Both the position numbers and the translations under genes were made by a program. From positions 32,001 to 96,000 of IMG/VR virus record IMGVR_UViG_3300013121_000013: a stretch of 64,000 nt of DNA; one strand, 5' to 3'. The first letter of the stretch is position 1. Every line of letters starts with the position of its first letter. The stretch is from a virus (Duplodnaviria > Caudoviricetes). A model generated the notes under the pieces. The model searched no databases. It was given only the letters and a program-made list of their open reading frames with translations, and had not been told where the DNA came from. Below, in pieces: positions 18,012-52,634 of the stretch.

Positions 18012-18428
18012 ATGCCTAATTTGACAACTGCTCAAGAAGTCATCGAGCACATCAAGGTTTCTAGCGAGATTGCTGAACGTGCAATGAAGATGGCTAACGA
18101 AAAGAAAGCTCAGGACCAGGCAATTGCGGCCAAAATTCCAGAGGCTGTAGATGCATTGATCCAGAGAGGATTTGTACCTAGTGAGTACGCAGAAGAAGCC
18201 AAGCAAGCTCTTGCTGATCCTGTGCGTGCTCTTGATGTCTTAATTAATACAGCTTGCTATTCGCCAGATAACACTAATCATCTAGGTGAACAAGTTTCAA
18301 ACGGAAGAAGTGAGAAACAAGCTTCTACCAGAGGCAACGTAGACAGCCCTTATTGCGGAGTTCGCTCGTCTACAAAGAGAGCTTCTGATCTTGCGTTTGA
18401 GCAAGGTATTCTTGGTAGAAGAATATAA
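18012..18428 (+). CDS. Small head/scaffold-associated protein
   Basis: Helical; EKQAS and TKRAS motifs; in the head operon. Confidence 0.55.
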   Translation: MPNLTTAQEVIEHIKVSSEIAERAMKMANEKKAQDQAIAAKIPEAVDALIQRGFVPSEYAEEAKQALADPVRALDVLINTACYSPDNTNHLGEQVSNGRSEKQASTRGNVDSPYCGVRSSTKRASDLAFEQGILGRRI

Positions 18429-18446
18429 TTGATAGATGTCTATCAA
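18429..18446. promoter_or_regulatory. 18-bp palindrome, copy 2 (TTGATAGATGTCTATCAA)
   Basis: Immediately after the stop codon; the symmetry extends to 18426-18449; upstream of the decoration and capsid genes. Confidence 0.75.
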
Positions 18447-18617
18447 TTAGTGTAAATTTTAAATTATTGTAAGCTAGAGAATAGGCATACTTTGAGTGCC
18501 AACTGTAATTGGGCTAGAGGTTGAATAGTTTAGCCTCGTGCCAAACATAGAAAAAACTAGCACAAGATTCTAGTATAATCGATTTAATCTATTAACTTTT
18601 TTATGGAGGGTATTAGA

Positions 18618-40188: not shown

Positions 40189-40998
40189 ATGCCGTATATG
40201 GACCCTTCTCAGTTTAAGCCAAAAAAACTGAAAAGTAACTTACAAGAAGAGGCCAGCCCTCTTGATGATTTATTGCTGGAGCCCTCTTATAGAAAACAAT
40301 ATGAAGCATGGAAAAATACTCCAAGCCCAGCTACGTCTGGCGCACTTTTAAGATCTGTAGATCCAGTTATTAAATCGGCTTTAACAACATATGGAGGGAC
40401 TTCTTCCAAAAGTCCTACTTTATACAGTAAAGCTAGATTAATGGCTTTACAATCTCTACCTTCATACGATCCAAAAAGAGCAAAATTACAGACATTCTTA
40501 ATGTCACAGCTACAAGGCCTGAGAAGGGCAGCTAGTAAAGAAGAGAGAGTACTGTCAGTCCCAGAACAGGTCCTTTTAGATAGACAGCACATATTTGATA
40601 CGTCGAAGTTTTTAGAAGAAGAACTAGGTAGAGAACCATCTACTATGGAGTTGGCGGATAGATTAAAACTTTCTCCAAAAAGAATCGAGTATATACAGAA
40701 ATACAGACCAGCTATGGCTGAAGGATCGTTTGTAGCACAAACTGAGGAGGGTGGCGCAGAGCCTTGGGCTCCTGCTGTCGAGTCTGATGGCTCTGCTTCT
40801 TGGCGTGAGTTCGTATATCATAGTTTAGATAATACTGATAAGCTTATAATGGAGTACACACTAGGAATGCACGGTAGAAGTCCATTAAGCAATCAAGAGC
40901 TAGCAAAGAAATTAAGGGTATCGCCTGGGGCGATAAGCCAAAGAAAAGCTAAAATACAGGATAAAATAGATTCTAGATATGATGTTGGAGTTATGTAA
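40189..40998 (+). CDS. Phage sigma-70 family factor (regions 2, 3 and 4; FliA/SigB-like size)
   Basis: Region 2 SYDPKRAKLQTFL..L.R; region 3 LEEELGREPSTMELADRLKLS; region 4 HTH LSNQELAKKLRVSPGAISQRKAKI. Confidence 0.88.
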   Translation: MPYMDPSQFKPKKLKSNLQEEASPLDDLLLEPSYRKQYEAWKNTPSPATSGALLRSVDPVIKSALTTYGGTSSKSPTLYSKARLMALQSLPSYDPKRAKLQTFLMSQLQGLRRAASKEERVLSVPEQVLLDRQHIFDTSKFLEEELGREPSTMELADRLKLSPKRIEYIQKYRPAMAEGSFVAQTEEGGAEPWAPAVESDGSASWREFVYHSLDNTDKLIMEYTLGMHGRSPLSNQELAKKLRVSPGAISQRKAKIQDKIDSRYDVGVM

Positions 40999-41977: not shown

Positions 41978-43657
41978 ATGTCTATTGAAATAACGGATCT
42001 AGATAGCTTGGACCAAGCTGATGTTCTAGACGCTCTTGAACGAGCTAGGTCATTTATAAGCGAACAGTACCCGGATCGTCAGATAAAAGGTGGACCTTTC
42101 GATGAATTAGTCCTTAGATCTGATGCAATTCTAGGTACAGTTCATAGAGAGAATTTTAACAGGTTGTTAAATTCTCAAAGCTTAAAAGCGATAGAGGACG
42201 ATCCGACACTTGTAGATGACGAAGTTCTAGATTCTCTAGCTTCTAATTATCGCATAGAAAGATCTGAAGGTCAGTTAGCGTCCGGTAGCGTAATGATAGT
42301 AGTATCTAATAACAACGACACTGTCATAGCAATAGGAACTAGATTTACCGCTCCTAACGGCAAGACTTTTGAAGTGACAAATCTATTTACTGGTAGGGGC
42401 AGCGCCAATAATGTAGTGACCAGTAACGATAGATTAATGATAGAGTTTGATGACTCTACTTACGGCTTCATAGTTGATGTTATAGCTACAGAAGTTGGAG
42501 CAGACGGTAATATAGAGATATTTACTACATTAACAAATGAGTCTCCAACTTCTAACTTTATTAGAGCCTATGCGAGCAATACGTTTACTGGAGGTCTTGA
42601 TGAAGAAAGCACTGCTAGTTTGTTGCCAAAGCTACAGGCTGGAATAGCGCACAGATCTCTAAGTAGTAGATCCTCTATTGAAGGTGTTATTAGATCAGAT
42701 GAGGATTATGCCAATATAGTTGCACTGTCAGTCGTTGGATATGGTGACCCCGAACAAATACGTTATCATGGGCTGTTTCCTATAGCTTTTGGAGGTAGAG
42801 TAGATGCTTACGTAAGGTCGTCAGAAAATTTAAATATAGTAGAGCTAACAAAAACTGCAACTCTCATTAATGCAAACGGAACGTGGCAGTTTACTATCTT
42901 CAGAGATGACGTGCCTGGGTTCTATGAGATAAGCAAGATTCTTTTACCAAGTCAATCAACAGACTCCACTGGATTCTCGGTATCTTCTGACATAAGGGGT
43001 GTCGATACAACTGAGGACCCACAATCAGATTCAACACCAGGAACTTCTTTTATACCAGATATAGAAACGGCTGAAGAAGCTGCGTACAGTAGGTATCAGA
43101 CAGCGGTTATAAAGTTTCTAGACGATGAAACATCAACTGCAGGATTAACTCCAGGAGTGTCAACTGCTAGCTATAAAGTTTATGTTAAAGCCATGCCTGG
43201 TATAGCTGAAATACAAGATCTAGTTTCTGATAGATCAGTTAGAAGTCCTGCTGGAGATTGCTTGGTCAAGGCTGCAGTTCCTTGCTTTACTAGCATAACT
43301 ATAGAGATTGAAAAAAAGAGTTCTGACCCTGATATAGATACAGATGTTATAAAGCAAGATATAATAAGAACAGTTAATTCCACCGGTTTTACAGGAAAAT
43401 TGTCTGCATCAAAAATTACGGCGGCTGTCGAGTCTTCAGTAAGGGCGCAATCAATAACAGATTTTTCTATAGCGTCTATATCATTAGTTGGTAGAATACT
43501 TCGGCCAGATATGACTACTAGAACAGTAACAAGTAGTACTATGCTTGAAATTGGAGATGAAGCTAGTAAGATGGTTACTGGTAGAACTACTGTTTTTATA
43601 ACTTCTACTGATATTATCACAATAACTGTGTCTTCTTCCGATTCTCCGGAAATTTAA
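41978..43657 (+). CDS. Baseplate J/gp6-like wedge protein
   Basis: LD.LA.NY.I.R..G..ASG.V, G..GNI, FTGG.DEES and GGRVD.YV motifs. Confidence 0.85.
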   Translation: MSIEITDLDSLDQADVLDALERARSFISEQYPDRQIKGGPFDELVLRSDAILGTVHRENFNRLLNSQSLKAIEDDPTLVDDEVLDSLASNYRIERSEGQLASGSVMIVVSNNNDTVIAIGTRFTAPNGKTFEVTNLFTGRGSANNVVTSNDRLMIEFDDSTYGFIVDVIATEVGADGNIEIFTTLTNESPTSNFIRAYASNTFTGGLDEESTASLLPKLQAGIAHRSLSSRSSIEGVIRSDEDYANIVALSVVGYGDPEQIRYHGLFPIAFGGRVDAYVRSSENLNIVELTKTATLINANGTWQFTIFRDDVPGFYEISKILLPSQSTDSTGFSVSSDIRGVDTTEDPQSDSTPGTSFIPDIETAEEAAYSRYQTAVIKFLDDETSTAGLTPGVSTASYKVYVKAMPGIAEIQDLVSDRSVRSPAGDCLVKAAVPCFTSITIEIEKKSSDPDIDTDVIKQDIIRTVNSTGFTGKLSASKITAAVESSVRAQSITDFSIASISLVGRILRPDMTTRTVTSSTMLEIGDEASKMVTGRTTVFITSTDIITITVSSSDSPEI

Positions 43658-43664
43658 TGGAGCT

Positions 43665-44402
43665 ATGATGTTGTCCAGATTTCCTAGATTTATTATATCG
43701 ATCATAATTTTAAGCACCATGCTTGTAGGTGCTACGCTAAAAGCAGAAGAAGGAACTAATTCTGTTCCTGGTCTAGTTCTACCTCCAAATAGCTCTGTTA
43801 GCTATAATAATGTAGCAGCTATAAGAATTAAAGCTAACACTACATCTAAAAATGTTAGATTCTTAGTTGTTGGTAGCGTACCCGATATTAAGTCTAAGCA
43901 AACAGATGCAAATACTATTGTTATAGATTTACCACAAAAAGACGCAACTATTTTTGTTTATGCAGTTGCTTGGTTGAATGGAGATTTCACTCCGTTTGCT
44001 AAAACTGTGGTGGTTGTAAAGGGAGACAGCACATCTGTTTCTTCTGACCCTGTTAATCCAACTACATCTACACCCTCGAAGGAATCTTTACCTGAGTTGG
44101 ATAAAAGTATAGCTATAACAATTGTTATGGATAAAGTTGATAATAAAAGTCAAGTTGTTAGTAATTATGTTAAGTCTAAAGAAGTACAAGATTGGCTAAC
44201 ATCTGGCAAGCACAAACTTATAATATATTATAACGACAATCCCGAACATTTAGCTTCTATTAAAAGACGTAAGCTTGAAGCGTTCTTAAAACCTACTGGG
44301 ATGGTTACACAAGAACTCTCAACCGGGACTTTACTTGATAGTAGGCCTGTCCCGGCAACTTTAGAAGACTTTATTAAAAATATAAATGAAATGTTTAAAT
44401 AA
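43665..44402 (+). CDS. Secreted hypothetical protein
   Basis: Signal peptide ending in LKA; Pro/Ser/Thr linker between two domains. Confidence 0.6.
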   Translation: MMLSRFPRFIISIIILSTMLVGATLKAEEGTNSVPGLVLPPNSSVSYNNVAAIRIKANTTSKNVRFLVVGSVPDIKSKQTDANTIVIDLPQKDATIFVYAVAWLNGDFTPFAKTVVVVKGDSTSVSSDPVNPTTSTPSKESLPELDKSIAITIVMDKVDNKSQVVSNYVKSKEVQDWLTSGKHKLIIYYNDNPEHLASIKRRKLEAFLKPTGMVTQELSTGTLLDSRPVPATLEDFIKNINEMFK

Positions 44403-44418
44403 GAACTAGGAGATATAA

Positions 44419-44823
44419 ATGTCAACTCATGTTTTATCGATGCTGACTGATGAGCAGAAGACAGTCGCAGAGCTAATGGTAGTAAATCATAATCTTAGCT
44501 GGGATTGGGTTTCTGATTTAGTAAATAAAGCATCGCCGGCAGTTTTGGATCTAGTTAGGCTAGCTCTAGACTTGGGTTTAAGTAAAGAATGGGTAGCTGA
44601 AGCTTTAGATAAACTCGGTCCTGTTATGTTGGAGTTTATCATTGTCGTGCTCAGAAAAAAGGAGCTAGATAATGTTCCAGCCTCAGCATCGAATATGTCA
44701 CATGTAGAGGATCTACAGCTAAACGATCTAGTTAAAAAGCTATTGCCAGCCCTGCTAGACGCCTTTGGCCCACAAATAGTGGATTTACTGACTACAGCCC
44801 TAATTAAAGCCCTGGCAAAGTAA
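44419..44823 (+). CDS. Leu-rich amphipathic hypothetical protein
   Basis: AGGAG RBS; repeated K.GP..L..I pattern. Confidence 0.55.
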   Translation: MSTHVLSMLTDEQKTVAELMVVNHNLSWDWVSDLVNKASPAVLDLVRLALDLGLSKEWVAEALDKLGPVMLEFIIVVLRKKELDNVPASASNMSHVEDLQLNDLVKKLLPALLDAFGPQIVDLLTTALIKALAK

Positions 44824-44835
44824 TAGTCCAATATT

Positions 44836-44871
44836 GAATACAAAGCCGTTTAATGAAACGGCTTTGTATTC
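44836..44871. terminator. Perfect 16-bp hairpin (terminator-like) upstream of the cytochrome cassette
   Basis: GAATACAAAGCCGTTT-AATG-AAACGGCTTTGTATTC. Confidence 0.75.
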
Positions 44872-44896
44872 TACTGATTTAATGAAAAGGACAGAG

Positions 44897-46675
44897 ATGA
44901 CACCTGGTAACAACTATAACAGATTGAATGTTGTTCTGACATTAATAGTGACTGTTGCTATTTTTGGTTTAACACTAAGAAATACTGAGAGTAAGGACTC
45001 ATATAAGGTGTTAATTCCTAGCTCCTTTAAGTTGCTAGAAGCAGAAGGTAAAGAATTTCTTATACCTAATCTAACTAGTTTAAAGGTTGTAAATCTTAAG
45101 GATCTGCCTATGTACAGTGGGCCCGGACAATCTAAGGACGGCCCAAATATTCCAGATCAAAAAAAAGAAGTACTACCATTTAGACACGTAGTACCAGCTA
45201 AAGCATTACTTAATCCTCAACACTCGACATTTCACGCTAATTTGGATTTACTAACTGTCCCTCTGGAAGACAGAAAATATTTAATGTATTTTTCCGCATA
45301 CAATTTTCCTAAGGAACACCGAAGAAGTATATGGGAAACACTGTCGTTTACAGTGAATTCGCTAAGTACAGAAAGAGCTATAAAAACTCCTGTAATAGTG
45401 GCTAACACGGATGACTCTCTCTTTAGAATAGATATTAGATGGTATGGATGGGATAGAAAAGTCGTAGAAGAGTTAATTACAAAGGGCAGTGGTCCAAAGC
45501 CATTACCAGAACCTTATTTCTATATGACGTTTGTTAAAGCGGAAGACGCTAAAGTAGAGAAAACTCCATATACAGAAAAAGAAACAGTTTTAGTTCAGAA
45601 TCAATTTGGGCAGCTTGTGCATCATACAAGAGAGGTTACAAAGTATAGAGAAGTTAAGACGGCTGGAAGTAAGAAGACTATACAAGCTATTGCTCCGTGG
45701 ATATCGCCTATATCAGCAAAGACTCTTTCAGAAAGCTTGCATACTACTACTCCTATAGTTAGAGCAGATTGGTTTATAGTGTACTCTATGTTTGCGCCAA
45801 TGTATTATAAGTTTCTCGGGGTTAAAGATAGAAAAGAAAAAGAACTTAAAGTCATAGCTATCTTCGATGAAAAGAATACGGATAAAGTAGAGTTAAGAGG
45901 TACGGCTGATACTAAAGTTGTAGCTTTAAATAATAGAATTCTTGTTAGAGTTCCAACTATAGCTTCTGTTAAAGGCGCCTACTGGTGGGAGTCCAACGAT
46001 TTTTCAAAAAGTGTAGATGAGGGCGATGTTCACAACAATTTGTTTGCAACACCAGAAGCTAAGGAAATTATATTTTCATTAAGAAATGGTTTGCAGGCTT
46101 ATGGATTATCGGATAAAGACGGAAATCTAGTAGATGTTGCACCTCCGCAGTTTGCCCAAGATACAGAGATTAAGAATCACGATAAGCAGGTATACAACGC
46201 TAGAAATTGTGTTACTTGTCATCAACAAGGTATACGAACCTTTAAAAATAAAGTAAAAGAATTAAGTCAAGGTACGGTCGCTCTTCTGGTGGCTAAAGAG
46301 AAGGATGCAAAGAAGGTAGAAGATAAATACTTCTCCTATGACATAGAAGATCTTATTAAAAGAGATCAGTTGCTATACTCAGAAGCAGTTGCATCTGTTA
46401 ACGGACTAACTGCTGCAGCAAATGCAACACAGTTTGATCTTCTTCAATATAACTATCTTGAAAACCAAATAACCCTATCAGCAATAGCCTATGAAACAGG
46501 GATTGAAAAGGAAAAGATACTAGACATGCTAAAAAAAGCCGTTAATATAGACCATACTTTAGTCGGGTTATTAAAAGAAGATCCCATCAGCATACGTAGA
46601 GAACAATTTGAACGAAGAGGGTTTCCTCAACTAGCTATGCTTATAATGCAGGCTAACTTGTACTCTGATAAGTAA
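44897..46675 (+). CDS. Membrane-anchored/secreted c-type cytochrome-like protein (one CxxCH)
   Basis: ATG 44897 follows AAGGA; N-terminal hydrophobic anchor; EIIFSLRNGLQAY...ARNCVTCHQQG with CxxCH at 46208-46222. Confidence 0.7.
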   Translation: MTPGNNYNRLNVVLTLIVTVAIFGLTLRNTESKDSYKVLIPSSFKLLEAEGKEFLIPNLTSLKVVNLKDLPMYSGPGQSKDGPNIPDQKKEVLPFRHVVPAKALLNPQHSTFHANLDLLTVPLEDRKYLMYFSAYNFPKEHRRSIWETLSFTVNSLSTERAIKTPVIVANTDDSLFRIDIRWYGWDRKVVEELITKGSGPKPLPEPYFYMTFVKAEDAKVEKTPYTEKETVLVQNQFGQLVHHTREVTKYREVKTAGSKKTIQAIAPWISPISAKTLSESLHTTTPIVRADWFIVYSMFAPMYYKFLGVKDRKEKELKVIAIFDEKNTDKVELRGTADTKVVALNNRILVRVPTIASVKGAYWWESNDFSKSVDEGDVHNNLFATPEAKEIIFSLRNGLQAYGLSDKDGNLVDVAPPQFAQDTEIKNHDKQVYNARNCVTCHQQGIRTFKNKVKELSQGTVALLVAKEKDAKKVEDKYFSYDIEDLIKRDQLLYSEAVASVNGLTAAANATQFDLLQYNYLENQITLSAIAYETGIEKEKILDMLKKAVNIDHTLVGLLKEDPISIRREQFERRGFPQLAMLIMQANLYSDK

Positions 46676-46685
46676 GGGGCTGAAG

Positions 46686-47372
46686 ATGTACATAAAGTTT
46701 ATGTGCTTGCTTTCTATAGTAGTTGTATCAACTTTGCTATATTTTCTACCTGCTTCTACAAAAGCTGGTTCTGTGACAACCCACGTAGTCCGGCACAATA
46801 GTCATGTAGTTCAGTATCCTATTCAACCGTTTTATCAATCAATAGTTGTACCTGCGTATTCATTTCAATATCTACCTGCTGTCAGTAGCTACACCTCTCC
46901 AGTAGTGCCACCCATATCTGCTCTTGTGCAGCAAGAGATGGCTAGAAGACAGCAGCTAAATTTAAACTCTAGTAATTTAAAAGAAGTAGTAGCAGAAGTA
47001 CTAAGACAGCTGGAGCAGCAAAAAGTAAAAATACCTAACGACGGAATGCCGGTTGTTTTTGATCCATCTACCGCTAGGAGTGAATCAAGAGCACAAGCTA
47101 AAGAAGCCGATAATAGCCAACTACCAGATATGACAGCGTACGCTCTGCAAGTACTTCAACATAGATGCGCAAGATGCCATACTGAGCCAGGAAGAGGAGA
47201 TGTCTTTCTGTTCACTAAACAAGGCGTTTATAGCCCAAACACTACAATAGCTTCTATATACGAAGAAATTCGCTCGCAAAGAATGCCTCCAGGTGCTAAA
47301 CTAGATCCTGACAAGAGATTACCAAAAGCCGAGCTTGACGTTATCGAAGCTTGGGCCTCACAAAGCAGATAA
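46686..47372 (+). CDS. Secreted monoheme cytochrome c domain protein
   Basis: Signal peptide; VLQHRCARCH (47166-47180)..RMPP..L...E..VI.AWA class I cytochrome c signature with a Met axial ligand. Confidence 0.8.
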   Translation: MYIKFMCLLSIVVVSTLLYFLPASTKAGSVTTHVVRHNSHVVQYPIQPFYQSIVVPAYSFQYLPAVSSYTSPVVPPISALVQQEMARRQQLNLNSSNLKEVVAEVLRQLEQQKVKIPNDGMPVVFDPSTARSESRAQAKEADNSQLPDMTAYALQVLQHRCARCHTEPGRGDVFLFTKQGVYSPNTTIASIYEEIRSQRMPPGAKLDPDKRLPKAELDVIEAWASQSR

Positions 47373-47396
47373 CAAATTTATTTCAAGGAGAATTAG

Positions 47397-47996
47397 ATGA
47401 AGAATCTTATCTTTACAGTTTTTGCGTCGTTTGTAGCTTTCACCGGAAATGTGTTTGCTGGCCATTGCGGTGTCAGCTCAGTAAGTTATAATCATGCCTA
47501 TAGCCAAGTTGTAACTCAGGCTGCATATACATATGTTGCTCCTATAGTCGTTCCTCTTGTGGCGTTACCAGTACAACCTGTTGTTTCTCAGGTACAGGCC
47601 ACTGTGCAGCAAGCTCCAGTAGTTGTTACAGCTCCAGTAGCTCCTGTATACTCTCAGCCAGTGGTAGGTTTTAATGTTTACTCTCTTCCTCAAACCTACA
47701 ATTATGGAGTTAGCCAGCTTGGAGTAGCTGCTAAACTAGTGAACACTGTAAAAGTAGTAGCGCCGCATGCTCCAGCCAAGGTTGTGTTGCAGCAGAAAGT
47801 TGTTAAGATTAAACAGCCAGTTGTTGTCAAGCAACAAAATGTGATTGTTAAGAGGCAGGAAGTTGTTGTCAAACAGCAAAATGTTGTTGTAAAAAGACAA
47901 AACGTGCAGAATCAAAGATTGGACGTAAAAGTCGTTAATAGATCTGCGTCCAGATTTTCTGCTAATAGAGTTTCAGTAAGAGTTAGATCTAGATAA
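47397..47996 (+). CDS. Secreted Val/Gln-rich low-complexity protein
   Basis: Signal peptide (VFA-GHC); VVVKQQN-type heptad repeats; AAGGAG RBS. Confidence 0.7.
   Translation: MKNLIFTVFASFVAFTGNVFAGHCGVSSVSYNHAYSQVVTQAAYTYVAPIVVPLVALPVQPVVSQVQATVQQAPVVVTAPVAPVYSQPVVGFNVYSLPQTYNYGVSQLGVAAKLVNTVKVVAPHAPAKVVLQQKVVKIKQPVVVKQQNVIVKRQEVVVKQQNVVVKRQNVQNQRLDVKVVNRSASRFSANRVSVRVRSR
47820..47903 (+). repeat. Four degenerate 21-bp units (V-V/I-V-K-Q/R-Q-N/E)
   Basis: GTTGTTGTCAAGCAACAAAAT-like units in tandem. Confidence 0.8.
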
Positions 47997-48019
47997 AATC
48001 TTCAAATTGAAGTGACATA

Positions 48020-48050
48020 AAGCACCTTGTGTGTTAAACTCAAGGTGCTT
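48020..48050. terminator. Hairpin closing the cytochrome cassette
   Basis: AAGCACCTTG...CAAGGTGCTT 10-bp stem followed by AT-rich sequence. Confidence 0.65.
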
Positions 48051-48082
48051 ATTCATTTAACGCTATAGAGGATTATAGAATA

Positions 48083-49570
48083 ATGTCAGCTATTTTTCCT
48101 TCAAATGATTTTGAACGAAAAGGCCAGTTAGTAAAGCAATTGGGTTCTTTTTGGAATGGTATCTTTGACGACGCAGAATTTATTTCTGATCGAGAAGTCA
48201 CCCTACTTCAAGAGGCTAGGCAGACATATGATATAGCCAGAGAGAATCTTTTGTCTATAAGTCGATTTACTATTCCTGTATATAATAAAGAAGAATGGCT
48301 GATCTTATCCATAGACGAAGCGGATATGCAAATCGGCAGAATAGTAGAATCTGGGAACGCTTACTCATTTGAAGAAAATACAACAGTTGCTGATCCAGTA
48401 TTTGCGTTCCCACTAAGATCGGACATCAAAGAAGTCGGCTCTATAGTAGATAAAAAAACAAATCCAAATATCCTTCTTATTAATAGCGTTGATTATTTTG
48501 TAGATGCAGAGAATTCTTTAATAGTCTTCAAGTCCAATCCGTTTTTAAACAGTTCTCTAAAAGTTGAGGCTACATATAGCGCTCAAGGTGTAGAAGAGCA
48601 AAGTATAATCAAGCTGTGGATGAATAAGGTATATGTTGATAAGAATAGAATATATAGCCAATTTGGATATGTGATCTCTCTATGGCTTAAATCAAGCGCT
48701 CAATATAGAGATATATTAAACTATATATTTGATAATTTAATGTTTGGTAATTCTCATAAAGCGTTTATAGGCAGTCTAGCCTTGATGGCTGATTGTCCAA
48801 TTTCGTTAGTGAATAACGAGGTTGTAGAAGATATAGTATATAGAAGCTCAGAGACTTTAATAATCACTGATAGAAACGTTTATAAGGCGCACAAGGATGC
48901 AAGTGTAGTTGTTGATATTGGAGAAGTGTTACTAGAAGGTCAATTCCTAACCGATACTTTAAAGGTTATAAGTCTAAACTCAGCTATTCTGCCGTCGTCT
49001 GTTACCTCTCTATCTATTGGAAAAGGCCTACTTATTGGAAGAGGATATACTGACGAACTTGTGTTTGAAAACAAAGTCGTGGATACAGAGATAAGTTCTG
49101 ACTCAAATGGTAAAACTAAAATTGAATGGGAAATTGTAGGCAACGATGCGGATAAGAGGTTATTCTGGGATACTGTCCATCAAAATGGTGTAGATAACGA
49201 TCAGACTTTAGCCAATTTCTTAGACCGTAGAACTAATAAAGTCGGTGAACCAAGTGCGTCTAACCTACCTAGGACCGTTAATCCTCTTAAATTTCTTGTA
49301 GATAATTTTTTAAGAAATGTAATAATAGTCGAAGCTAACTTTAATACATTTGGAAGGAACTCCCTAGGGTTTAATAATACAAACATTGTTAGAAGATTGA
49401 TTCCGCCTCAGTATTTATTAATCTTTATTGTAACTATCAGCATTTCTGAGGTTTCCAACAGATTTCCGCTACAGTCTGAAAGCACTACAACTTTCTTTAC
49501 TGGAGCTCCGAATGTAATTCAGTCAGTATCATCAACACTTATAGGAAACAGCAGCTTTACATTTAGTTAA
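48083..49570 (+). CDS. Baseplate wedge (gpI/gp7-like) protein
   Basis: Resumes the baseplate order after J; FG......S..YR..L..I and RRLIPP motifs. Confidence 0.55.
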   Translation: MSAIFPSNDFERKGQLVKQLGSFWNGIFDDAEFISDREVTLLQEARQTYDIARENLLSISRFTIPVYNKEEWLILSIDEADMQIGRIVESGNAYSFEENTTVADPVFAFPLRSDIKEVGSIVDKKTNPNILLINSVDYFVDAENSLIVFKSNPFLNSSLKVEATYSAQGVEEQSIIKLWMNKVYVDKNRIYSQFGYVISLWLKSSAQYRDILNYIFDNLMFGNSHKAFIGSLALMADCPISLVNNEVVEDIVYRSSETLIITDRNVYKAHKDASVVVDIGEVLLEGQFLTDTLKVISLNSAILPSSVTSLSIGKGLLIGRGYTDELVFENKVVDTEISSDSNGKTKIEWEIVGNDADKRLFWDTVHQNGVDNDQTLANFLDRRTNKVGEPSASNLPRTVNPLKFLVDNFLRNVIIVEANFNTFGRNSLGFNNTNIVRRLIPPQYLLIFIVTISISEVSNRFPLQSESTTTFFTGAPNVIQSVSSTLIGNSSFTFS

Positions 49571-49586
49571 AGGATAATAAATTCAG

Positions 49587-50177
49587 ATGTCAAATCCTAA
49601 AAGCTTTACTACGATTTGGACCATTAATGAGTCTGGGCTCTGGACGCCAGTAGCAACGGCTCCAAATGATTTAACATATAAATGGGCTTATCTTGTAATC
49701 AAAACTCTGGCTCATGGCGATATGGACTACAAGATATCGTCCATGTATATGGAATTTGAAAATGTTGCTTCCCCTTCAACTTTGGCTACTGTCCCAACTA
49801 TAGATAGAGAAGATCAACTGGGTTACTATAATAGCCTTAGTGCAAATAAGGACTTTTTAAGGGTTAATTTAGTGTCTAACCCAGCTATTTCCATATCGTC
49901 AGGATTTGAAAGTTATTTCAACGAAGGAGAAGGAAACACGGTTACGTTCTTTGCTCAATCTGCTGGGGTTACCGGAATTCTTGGTAGAGATTTTTCAAAT
50001 TCTTCTAATAGTAAAATTTATGGTTCAGCTCTTGTGGCCACTCCAGTAAGCTCTGATAGATATCAAGATATAATTTTTGCTAGATCATATTACGACGGTG
50101 TTATCGTACCTCAACAGCTAAAATCGGCAAATACCCAGATAGGTATAAGCTGGACTGTTCCTTTTGAAGAAAATTGA
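49587..50177 (+). CDS. Baseplate/tail-fibre attachment protein
   Basis: IFARSY..K.....I.W.V.F C-terminus typical of fibre-proximal baseplate proteins. Confidence 0.55.
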   Translation: MSNPKSFTTIWTINESGLWTPVATAPNDLTYKWAYLVIKTLAHGDMDYKISSMYMEFENVASPSTLATVPTIDREDQLGYYNSLSANKDFLRVNLVSNPAISISSGFESYFNEGEGNTVTFFAQSAGVTGILGRDFSNSSNSKIYGSALVATPVSSDRYQDIIFARSYYDGVIVPQQLKSANTQIGISWTVPFEEN

Positions 50178-50191
50178 TAGATATCTATCAA
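50174..50191. promoter_or_regulatory. 18-bp palindrome, copy 5 (TTGATAGATATCTATCAA, perfect)
   Basis: Contains the TGA stop; upstream of the tail fibre gene. Confidence 0.8.
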
Positions 50192-50213
50192 AATCTTAAA
50201 CGGGGTGTTAAGT

Positions 50214-52634
50214 ATGCCTTTGCCATATTCTCCGTACTTACCAAGACCATATTCTGCCGACGAGGAAATATTAATTCCTGGATTCGGAGGATTAAGCTCT
50301 ATTTTATGCCCTTGCCCTCCTTATCCTTATTTTCTTCCTATTTATTATCCTAACATTTATTGCCCATACCCAGATCTTGTACCTGGCGCCGGAGGAACAG
50401 GTCCTCAGGGCCCTCAAGGGTACCAGGGGCCACAGGGCTCTCAAGGACCTCAAGGGGACCAAGGTCCACAGGGCTCTCAAGGACCTCAAGGAAATCAAGG
50501 TGAACAAGGACCCCAAGGACCTCAAGGATACCAAGGTGACCAAGGACCTCAAGGATACCAAGGTGACCAAGGACCTCAAGGATACCAAGGCGATCAGGGC
50601 TATCAGGGGCTACAAGGAGAACAAGGTCCGCAAGGTGCCCAAGGACCGCAAGGAAATCAAGGACCACAAGGTTATCAGGGATATCAAGGCCCCATAGGTA
50701 ACTACGCACTTACTGTATATGGTGTATACGCCGGCTTATGCTTAGTCAGTGCTTTTAGCTCTATAAGTTTAAGAAATCAGACAGTTCCCGTACCACCGAC
50801 CCCGGCCTTAGAAGTTTATCTTTTAGACGATGTTCTTTTAAACTCTAACCCTCTTGTCTTCACGGCTACAGATGCAACTACTCTAACAATAGAGGAAGAT
50901 GGCTATTACTCTATCGAATATCAGATAGCTTTAAAATGGGTAACAACTCCAGCAGATGAAGCTGCAGTTGAATGTAAATTATTGCTTAACGGAGCACCTT
51001 TAGTTGGAGGTGCTTCGGTTATATATATGACCGAAACAGCAGGAGGCAGTAATGATTTGCATTCTACATCCAAGCAAAAATTATCATATCTTGAGGCTGG
51101 AGACGAGCTAGCTGTAACTGTTGAGCAAATAAGCGGGGCGAGCGTCGTTGCTGTAGAGACAAGCGCTTATCATTGCACTTTAGACGTGCATAGAATTTCT
51201 TGCGATACAGGTCCACAAGGATACCAAGGCGACCAAGGACCTCAAGGCGATCAAGGTCCTCAAGGCGATCAAGGATACCAAGGAGATCAAGGTCCTCAAG
51301 GCTATCAAGGACCACAAGGAGATCAGGGTTATCAAGGTGATCAAGGATACCAAGGAGATCAAGGCTATCAAGGTCCTCAAGGAGATCAAGGTCCTCAAGG
51401 AGATCAAGGCTATCAAGGTCCTCAAGGAGATCAAGGCTATCAAGGTCCTCAAGGAGATCAAGGTGTGCCAGGACCTTCTCATGATCCTGTAACCTTCTCT
51501 TTGTTATCTCTTGATTATCTTACCATTTTAGGGCAAAAGATAACACAGAACCCTATAGACTTATCTTCAGACGTTACAGGAATTCTTGGTCTAGCATATG
51601 GAGGTACAGGCGCAGACTTATCAACAGTAGCTGGTCAAGATAGAATTCTATATTGGAATGATGCAGGTTTAACCACGGCTTGGTTAAATATAGATACAAC
51701 ATTGCAGATCTCTGCCGGTGCCTTAGGTGTAACATATCCAGTTGAGCTGTCAGAAGGCGGTACAGGCGCAGACTTATCAACAGTAGCTGGTCAAGATAGA
51801 ATTCTATATTGGAATGATGCAGGTTCAACCACGGCTTGGTTAAATATAGGCGCTGGTTTATATATTTCTGCCGGAGCCTTGGTTGCTGCTACTACGTTTG
51901 ACGCCAGCGCTATAACTACTGGAACAGTAGACACAGCCAGGCTAGGAACAGGTACGGCCAATAACACTGTAGTTCTAAGAGGAGATCAGACTTGGGCACA
52001 GGTCAATACTTCTCAGATGGCTAACGACGCTGTTACAGACGCTATTCTGAGAAATAGTACAGCATGCTCTATTATAGGTCGAAGCGCTAATTCAACAGGT
52101 GATCCGGCTGATATCTCAGCTGGTTCTGATGGGCTATATTTAGGACGACGTTCGAGTGCTCTTGGCTTCTATGCGCCTAACGGCAACGAACTAGCGATCG
52201 TTGGCGCCGTCTACCGTAGTACGGCTAACCAATCTATTAGCCAGAATACTCCAACAATACTCCTGACGGGCTCTACCACCCTAGACCTTAACACGAACAG
52301 TTTTACCAGCGGAGCAACCAGCGGTTTCCTCAAGATTCCGACTGGCTATGGTGGTTGGTACGAGGTTGGATATTCGGTGGCTTGGGATACGATCAGCACC
52401 GCTGGTCACGTCTCCGCGCAGCTGGTAGACAGTGACAGCAACGTCTACGCCCTGAGCCGGCACAACACCACCTCAACCTCGGCGGCCCACGGTCATGCAG
52501 CTTCGGCGCTCATCTACCTGGCTGATGGCAAGGAGATCGCTGTGCGCGTCAACCAAAGTCCGGTGGCCAGCGTAAACATTTTGGCATCATCTAGACAGTC
52601 TGCTATCTTATGGCTATTTAAAGTGGGGAATTAA
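50214..52634 (+). CDS. Collagen-like tail fibre/spike with C1q/BclA-like domains
   Basis: Two G-X-Q collagen tracts; beta-sandwich domains ([18 protein letters not shown]); GGTGA fibre repeats; RLGTGTA....LRGD.TW motif. Confidence 0.8.
50401..50692 (+). repeat. Collagen G-(P/Y/D/S/E)-Q tract 1
   Basis: 9-bp periodic CAAGGA/CAAGGT repeats. Confidence 0.9.
51211..51470 (+). repeat. Collagen G-(P/Y/D)-Q tract 2
   Basis: 9-bp periodic repeats. Confidence 0.9.
51603..51849 (+). repeat. 91-bp direct repeat (51603-51693 and 51759-51849)
   Basis: One mismatch; encodes [22 protein letters not shown](L/S)TTAWLNI twice. Confidence 0.9.

Follow-up and report, generated by a model that had tools for sequence, protein, structure and literature searches.

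A mobile phage module of exported, putative haem c proteins shares its core with PSCyt1 fusion proteins common in Planctomycetota

Introduction

Why should a tailed phage encode exported proteins that look like c-type cytochromes? The question is posed by IMGVR_UViG_3300013121_000013, a linear IMG/VR virus record of 155,646 bp (Duplodnaviria; Caudoviricetes; estimated completeness 76%), of which bases 32001–96000 were analysed here: a stretch of 64,000 nucleotides, hereafter the window, whose own numbering is used throughout. Close to the gene for baseplate protein J, three neighbouring open reading frames (ORF1, ORF2 and ORF3) encode predicted exported proteins, the first two with a CxxCH motif apiece. 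An initial annotation, made from the letters of the sequence, took them for a hairpin-bounded cassette of cytochrome-like proteins sitting inside the baseplate genes.

Exported haem c proteins are rare phage cargo, and a search of the literature found no description of this phage module. Here, we report that ORF1, ORF2 and ORF3 are the core of an accessory module that recurs in many unrelated phages; a further gene, ORF0, usually precedes the core and a small helical protein (g134) or a papain-like peptidase sometimes accompanies it. We are highly confident that this is a genuine module connected with haem and, on balance, lean towards reading it as a periplasmic two-haem relay that acts with a secreted low-complexity protein; our confidence in the specific chemistry of such a relay is low. 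The ORF1 family spans thousands of sequence clusters named by no domain library, and the phage form, compact and split over four small genes without variable repeat domains, offers a tractable route to the function of PSCyt1–core proteins, which are abundant in Planctomycetota. Such work would also show how a phage benefits, late in infection, from putting redox cofactors into the periplasm of its host.

Materials and Methods

The phage-type set consisted of 15 loci, the window included, taken from phage-like contigs in JGI, Logan, NCBI and IMG/VR by word-based and profile searches. The cellular set consisted of 66 loci found by scanning prokaryotic genomes, one for each species, the genome rows being sampled via a single peptide pattern. 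Individual loci are cited by L numbers. Sequence clusters were searched with a profile of nine ORF1 homologues. Export signals are predictions, read straight from the sequences as basic and hydrophobic N-terminal segments.

Results

The three co-oriented genes of the initial annotation were confirmed at 44882–47996, encoding in turn predicted exported proteins with CVTCH, with CARCH...MPP and with a V/Q-rich composition. The module to which they belong is larger, extending from 43665 to 47996, and is laid out as follows (lengths in amino acids, aa):

43665..44402, + strand: ORF0, exported 245-aa protein with a signal peptide, no Cys and no family match; conserved upstream partner
44419..44823, + strand: g134, helical protein of 134 aa that has no signal peptide; optional member of the module
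44836..44871, + strand: hairpin 1, perfectly paired stem of 16 bp closed by a 4-nt loop, 10 nt 5′ of the ORF1 ATG
44882..46675, + strand: ORF1, 597-aa signal-anchored exported protein of three domains: the N-domain, a beta-sheet domain that has CVTCH at its end and, at the C-terminus, a helical domain
46686..47372, + strand: ORF2, 228-aa exported protein with a low-complexity N-half and a C-terminal small cytochrome-c-like domain
47397..47996, + strand: ORF3, 199-aa secreted low-complexity protein, V/Q-rich, whose mature N-terminus has Cys/His and whose basic tail reads ...VRVRSR
48020..48050, + strand: hairpin 2, 13-bp stem with one mismatch, then ATTCATTT; terminator-like unit end

CxxCH is confined to ORF1 and ORF2 among all six-frame ORFs of at least 80 aa in the whole 155.6-kb record, a restriction that rules out chance occurrence of the motif. 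The motif is also conserved among homologues, being invariant in both families, so that the refutation by lack of conservation named in the initial annotation fails. In ORF1, CVTCH occupies residues 443–447 (46208–46222), downstream of an N-terminal basic and hydrophobic segment modelled as a helix at residues 12–32. The protein likely starts at ATG 44882 (597 aa) or at ATG 44897 (592 aa; the choice of gene callers in related assemblies), and its longest frame opens at a TTG at 44834, inside hairpin 1. The CxxCH of ORF1 is invariant in sets of 9, 83, 74 and 153 homologues; in the 83-sequence alignment, the motif and the Gly that follows it are among only six invariant columns.

With clusters formed at 50% identity, the search matched 4,442 representatives (E ≤0.001), of which 1,812 reached E ≤1e-30. 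None of the 83 ORF1 homologues matched a Pfam family at E ≤0.001. Each of the 153 best representatives has exactly one CxxCH, and neither an ORF1–ORF2 fusion nor a PSCyt1 region was found among them. In the ESM Atlas, the clusters nearest to ORF1 are unnamed; Uroviricota is the commonest assignment among their classified members, and several of these clusters are 65–87% viral. Farther out come PSCyt1-bearing proteins of Planctomycetota and Myxococcota, some of them fused to WD40 or DUF4384. Sequence-profile searching of the PDB returned nothing meaningful, and comparison of every module protein with Pfam, PHROGs and NCBIfam yielded nothing beyond cytochrome matches below threshold.

ORF2 has a signal peptide, CARCH at residues 161–165 (47166–47180) and MPP at residues 200–202 (47283–47291), with C161, C164, H165, M200 and P201 invariant in six homologues. 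It thus resembles PSCyt1 (PF07635) and Cytochrome_CBB3 (PF13442) in having a CxxCH followed, after ~35 residues, by an invariant Met-Pro, and matches to these domains, weak as they are, fall in the right register. It differs from them in scoring under the curated cut-offs and in its low-complexity N-half, whose conserved PA[YF]SFQ[YV] motif has no counterpart there. The protein in the window scores 17.6 against the Cytochrome_CBB3 threshold of 27, with a sub-threshold Haem_bd match and no match to PSCyt1; nine of ten ORF2 homologues match Cytochrome_CBB3, all below threshold (best 21.5 against 27), and one (L006) matches PSCyt1 at 16.1 against 22, likewise sub-threshold. From these motifs, ORF2 reads as a divergent small His/Met cytochrome c, the Met ligand being assigned because the Met-Pro is invariant.

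Hidden Markov model searches and gene-neighbourhood analysis, both proposed with the initial annotation, found the module recurring in the 15 phage-type loci. An ORF2-family gene lies directly 3′ of ORF1 in 13 of these, and iterated profile searching placed an ORF0 homologue upstream of ORF1 in 11, including loci without shared synteny. Judged by eye, an ORF3-like protein comes next after ORF2 in 13 of the 15; under a fixed composition rule, which was tuned on phage examples, an ORF3-like gene is present in 9 of the 15 phage-type loci versus none of the 66 cellular loci. ORF3-like proteins have a signal peptide, are of low complexity and rich in aromatic residues, Val, Ala, Gly and Gln, and usually end in a basic tail; ORF3 itself has a canonical signal peptide, 26% V and 11% Q, and its gene contains a 21-nt tandem repeat. 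The ORF2 profile does not match the ORF3 proteins, so the resemblance between ORF2 and ORF3 is compositional only. The nearest Atlas clusters to ORF0 are 93% viral, and its profile found no match among the neighbour genes of the cellular loci. Homologues of g134 occur in 5 of the 15 phage-type loci; in L002, L006 and L008 they lie just upstream of ORF1, and in L004 the homologue is the C-terminal portion of a protein of 524 aa.

The initial annotation had tied the cassette to its position among the baseplate genes, and this did not hold. Baseplate J (41978–43657; PF04865, E 1.7e-11) and a 495-aa gene 3′ of the module (48083–49570) accompany it only in the window, L002 and L008; in the other 12 of the 15 loci, the module sits outside the J/wedge context, among small early-type genes (RusA, LexA-like, integrase, AcrVA2-like, ParB-like). 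The module-bearing contigs range in GC content from 41% to 71%. Because it has baseplate neighbours in just three of 15 loci, the module is a mobile, widespread, phage-specific accessory unit and not part of the baseplate. A structural role in the baseplate was rejected, and one in the virion is disfavoured, on the lack of any Pfam or PHROG structural match, on the 12 loci outside a tail context and on the export signals. Nor is baseplate J directly adjacent to the cassette: two genes (43665–44402 and 44419–44823) intervene between J and ORF1.

In four module-bearing phages, ORF0 and ORF1 have between them a gene for a papain-family cysteine peptidase (L008:4651-6555, L009:5929-7911, L005:9138-9989 and L006:6653-7495; PF00112 in L006, E 1e-6). 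In two of the four, an intein (Hint plus LAGLIDADG) splits it near residue 70. A tblastn search found no copy of this peptidase in the genome represented by the window.

The presence of these genes within a tail block could, in principle, stem from a chimeric join that brought foreign genes into the tail module, and the initial annotation had named such an artefact as a danger to its reading. We consider it next to impossible: three independent assemblies (two from ENA and one from Logan; ORF1 ~97% amino acid identity) agree fully in their gene order, all the way from the sigma factor to the tail fibre (sigma-like gene, two small genes, baseplate J, 245-aa, 134-aa, ORF1, ORF2, ORF3, 495-aa, 196-aa, fibre), a more distant contig with 49% identity in ORF1 has the same order, and GC content (0.35–0.45) is even across the region of interest.

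The module genes are under purifying selection. Against a close relative, the pairwise ratio of nonsynonymous to synonymous divergence (dN/dS) is 0.13 for ORF0, 0.08 for g134, 0.14 for ORF1 and 0.12 for ORF3, with 0.09 for the flanking 495-aa gene; ORF2 is identical in that relative. Synonymous divergence (dS) from L083/L084 across window positions 41978–50177 is a mosaic: ~0 for baseplate J and the 196-aa gene, 0.06–0.12 for ORF1, ORF3 and the 495-aa gene, and 0.57 for g134, the most diverged gene of the block. This mosaic between close relatives suggests recombination within the block.

INPHARED yielded a single phage with a homologue, uncultured, 595 kb long and lacking annotation, and so supplied neither a cultured carrier nor a host. 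Another module-bearing record, L077 (IMGVR_UViG_3300047160_036266, 343 kb), is classed as a provirus, and its flanks might identify a host of the module.

The suggestion in the initial annotation that the families are common in planctomycetes was borne out. Planctomycetota account for 46 of the 66 cellular loci, which carry PSCyt1; the others belong to Pseudomonadota, Armatimonadota, Acidobacteriota, Verrucomicrobiota and further phyla, and the same unnamed family also includes Myxococcota. The cellular proteins are 580–1,414 aa long and match the ORF1 profile in two blocks (HMM positions 28–129 and 205–520; E 1e-45 to 1e-82), and therefore lack the phage-specific insert. ORF1 and the cellular family are linked by profile homology and by a single CxxCH in the beta domain in all 74 sequences compared. 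In each of ten cellular proteins scanned against Pfam, a PSCyt1/Cytochrome_CBB3-type domain lies N-terminal to the core, reaching the PSCyt1 cut-off in eight, and the ORF2 profile matches the PSCyt1 region in several of the fused proteins. The C-terminal domains vary (TPR, Sel1, LRR, beta-helix/NosD, Big_7, FGE-sulfatase, cohesin-dockerin).

The phage and cellular forms are thus alike in having an invariant CxxCH in the same beta-sheet domain and a second predicted haem site in a small cytochrome domain. The fusion of the core to PSCyt1 in the bacterial relatives makes it very probable that ORF1 and ORF2 operate together; it is the chief ground for pairing them. The forms differ in that the cellular cytochrome is fused in front of the core, whereas the phage cytochrome is a separate gene after the core, with a low-complexity N-half of its own; this reversed order means that the phage form is not a simple split of the fusion. 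The phage core also has an extra beta-hairpin insert and lacks the variable C-terminal repeat domains, and its partners ORF0 and ORF3 are found in viruses only. In a maximum-likelihood tree (quick search, LG+G4, midpoint root for drawing only), all 14 phage-type sequences fall on one side of a branch with 100% support in the Shimodaira–Hasegawa-like approximate likelihood ratio test, against 50 genome sequences.

The neighbours of the cellular genes are of a different kind. Of the 66 loci, 17 have Ser/Thr kinases no more than 5 kb away, six have VWA proteins and three have CHAT-TPR proteins; L059 is itself a kinase–PSCyt1–core–FGE-sulfatase fusion, with the Ser/Thr kinase N-terminal. Beside 14 loci (L013, L030, L033, L037, L049 and nine more) is a gene for an exported protein of ~400–530 aa, from a family of ~430-aa proteins with no Pfam match, and the genes so accompanied belong to the short (~600-aa) clade of PSCyt1–core proteins. 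A pair of genes encoding DUF1501 and PSCyt1/PSCyt2/PSD1 has reportedly been described as a module of Planctomycetes and Verrucomicrobia (PMC3542564). That pair is likewise an exported, PSCyt1-bearing system typical of the same phyla; it differs in that ORF1 matches neither PSCyt2 nor PSD1 (DUF1549/DUF1553) and that DUF1501 is missing from the phage module. Among the 66 cellular loci, only four have DUF1501 within 5 kb, and in L027 it directly follows a separate 1,163-aa PSCyt1-type protein. Such adjacency in four loci is no evidence of a functional link to DUF1501.

An AlphaFold2 model of ORF1 from an 83-sequence alignment (predicted local distance difference test score, pLDDT, 87.4; predicted template modelling score, pTM, 0.80) shows a disordered stalk beyond the anchor, then an alpha/beta N-domain (residues ~110–300) in which the beta-hairpins are long, a five-stranded beta-sheet domain that ends in the CxxCH helix (~300–460) and a helical C-terminal domain. 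Foldseek, run with the whole model and with the domain against the PDB and also run on BFVD, matched nothing at E ≤0.001. With VIA-align, the whole model ranked a cytochrome c′-beta from Thermus thermophilus (8brk) first among 48,161 chains (Z 5.8, root-mean-square deviation [rmsd] 3.4 Å, 99 residues), followed by cytochrome P460 from Methylococcus capsulatus (6hiu, Z 5.0) and c′-beta from Nitrosomonas europaea (7s5o, Z 4.5); two more P460 entries came lower in the list, and all of these alignments fall on ORF1 residues 304–491. Residues 300–510 folded alone (68-sequence alignment, pLDDT 90.4) gave the same top three (Z 5.3, 4.8 and 4.7), with c′-beta/P460 structures at ranks 1, 2, 3, 5 and 12 of the 48,161 chains, all at Z values below the level where unrelated folds stop appearing.

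The ORF1 domain shares with the c′-beta/P460 proteins (8brk, 7s5o, 6hiu, 6amg, 2je3) a mostly beta-sheet build of ~140 residues, a single CxxCH near the C-terminal end and the lack of a conserved sixth haem ligand. The 68-sequence domain alignment contains no invariant Met, His or Lys besides the His of CxxCH and no near-invariant Lys for a P460-type haem cross-link; this fits an open, five-coordinate haem and argues against the Lys cross-link of P460. On the other side, the matches reach only Z 3.4–5.8 at rmsd 3.4–4.4 Å and 9–16% identity, no PDB entry matches in sequence, and the ORF1 domain is embedded in a 600-aa protein of three domains. We therefore treat the modelled resemblance as a weak, if coherent, lead and not as evidence of membership.

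The two hairpins, which the initial annotation took for the flanks of the cassette, are both real, but the first is no boundary: hairpin 1 is internal to the unit, because the two genes upstream of ORF1 travel with the module. RNAfold gave −23.1 kcal/mol for hairpin 1 and −18.4 kcal/mol for hairpin 2, and the 64-kb window holds seven hairpins with stems of at least 11 bp versus 0.75 expected from shuffles. In L083/L084, hairpin 1 retains its stem with an altered loop, and hairpin 2 is identical. A consensus terminator scan called neither; hairpin 2 has a partial T-tail (ATTCATTT) and hairpin 1 no U-tract. Comparable hairpins lie at or just 5′ of the ORF1 start in L004, L006 and L008, and terminator-like hairpins lie 3′ of the ORF3-like gene in L003, L004 and L006. 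Because hairpins recur before ORF1 and after the ORF3-like gene, they suggest that ORF1–ORF3 form a transcriptional sub-unit.

Discussion

How might such a module work? In the relay that we favour, the host's cytochrome-c maturation machinery would attach haem to ORF1 and ORF2 in the periplasm, and ORF2, with its His/Met haem, would carry electrons between a host periplasmic carrier and the haem of ORF1. The latter may be an open, five-coordinate reactive site like that of cytochrome c′-beta/P460. In the most speculative step, the pair would alter the envelope of the infected cell through ORF3, a secreted protein rich in aromatic residues, Val and Gly, either acting on it or working together with it, for instance by cross-linking it oxidatively or assembling it. 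Neither the record nor five other carrier records (one of them complete) contain a CcmF/CcsA-type gene (PF01578), so any haem maturation must fall to the host.

Several points weigh against this relay. No module protein reaches a curated Pfam cytochrome threshold, and the c′-beta/P460 match is weak (Z <6) where Foldseek is silent, so that it could reflect only a common beta-sheet arrangement. Covalent haem is itself predicted, from the motif and the export signal, and would presuppose maturation machinery in the host. ORF3 is tied to the haem proteins by gene order alone. The cellular relatives have no ORF3-like neighbour and lie near Ser/Thr kinases (17 of 66 loci, with one fusion), which points to sensing and not to catalysis. 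Finally, two proteins of the module, g134 and the peptidase, lack export signals, and a redox model confined to the periplasm leaves their presence unexplained.

The kinase neighbours are one ground for another reading, possible though on the whole unlikely, in which ORF1 with ORF2 is a periplasmic sensor. At the open haem it would bind a small ligand, redox-active or gaseous (nitric oxide [NO], O2, H2O2 or hydroxylamine), and its signal would tell of the condition of the host envelope, perhaps so that lysis is timed or superinfection detected, much as in the cellular relatives linked to kinases. The N-terminal kinase of L059 agrees with this, as do the other C-terminal fusions, which are ligand- or protein-binding repeats (TPR, Sel1, LRR, WD40, DUF4384), and the c′-beta-like domain, which resembles a gas-binding family. 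The phage proteins, however, have neither an output domain nor a kinase partner, planctomycete genomes are so rich in kinases that part of the adjacency is due to chance, and the strict link to ORF3 and ORF0 would go unexplained.

The relay can also be carried further, to an oxidative haem enzyme system of the periplasm, specific to phages, in which the small cytochrome feeds an open-site haem protein that cross-links or assembles ORF3 and so, with ORF0 and sometimes the peptidase, builds or reshapes an envelope layer. We give this fuller version little credence, rather less than the sensor. If true, it would be a new phage-made barrier, serving superinfection exclusion, delayed lysis or progeny protection and akin to the peroxidase-hardened matrices of eukaryotes.

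We are more doubtful still that these are auxiliary metabolic genes whose cytochromes plug into the periplasmic electron transport of the host, sustaining respiration or detoxifying NO or reactive oxygen species. ORF2 does resemble a small soluble class I cytochrome c (CxxCH with Met-Pro, and the sub-threshold Cytochrome_CBB3 matches in nine of ten homologues), and phage genes for soxD-type cytochromes are said to be described in the literature on auxiliary sulfur metabolism, which counts in favour of this reading. Against it, the fully supported branch separates the phage sequences from all sampled cellular copies and the partners are virus-only, so this is not a recently borrowed respiratory gene; the cellular relatives are not known respiratory components, and a low-complexity ORF3 has no place in the scheme.

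It is improbable that CxxCH is no haem site at all but binds another metal or forms a structural disulfide, the proteins being envelope-binding or structural factors, possibly associated with the virion. Such a reading would accommodate the failure to reach any Pfam cytochrome threshold, the lack of a cytochrome fold in Foldseek and the position of the genes among tail genes in the lineage of the window. The His of CxxCH is, however, as invariant as both Cys in more than 150 sequences, and the cellular relatives carry an above-threshold PSCyt1 beside the core, the very domain that the ORF2 profile matches. All four proteins that bear the motif or partner it have predicted Sec-type signals, which would be unusual for virion parts, and 12 of the 15 loci lie outside tail modules.

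Neighbouring genes

Every long ORF from ~1 to ~60,000 of the window is on the + strand. The 495-aa gene, the next wedge gene of the initial annotation and thus only a putative baseplate gene, has no Pfam, PHROG or NCBIfam match and is conserved 3′ of the module in L002 and L008. Upstream, inside the tail/baseplate block, lies a sigma-70-like factor (40189–40998; Sigma70_r3, E 2e-7; phrog_351, RNA polymerase sigma factor), whose position is conserved in L002, L008 and L083–L085. Downstream, an 809-aa tail-fibre-like protein (50205–52634) contains collagen-type G-x-Q/G-P-Q triplets in long runs, grouped in two blocks, and a segment duplicated within the protein near residues 470–560. A perfect palindrome with TTGATAGA...TCTATCAA recurs at gene junctions, at 50174–50191 and 18426–18449.

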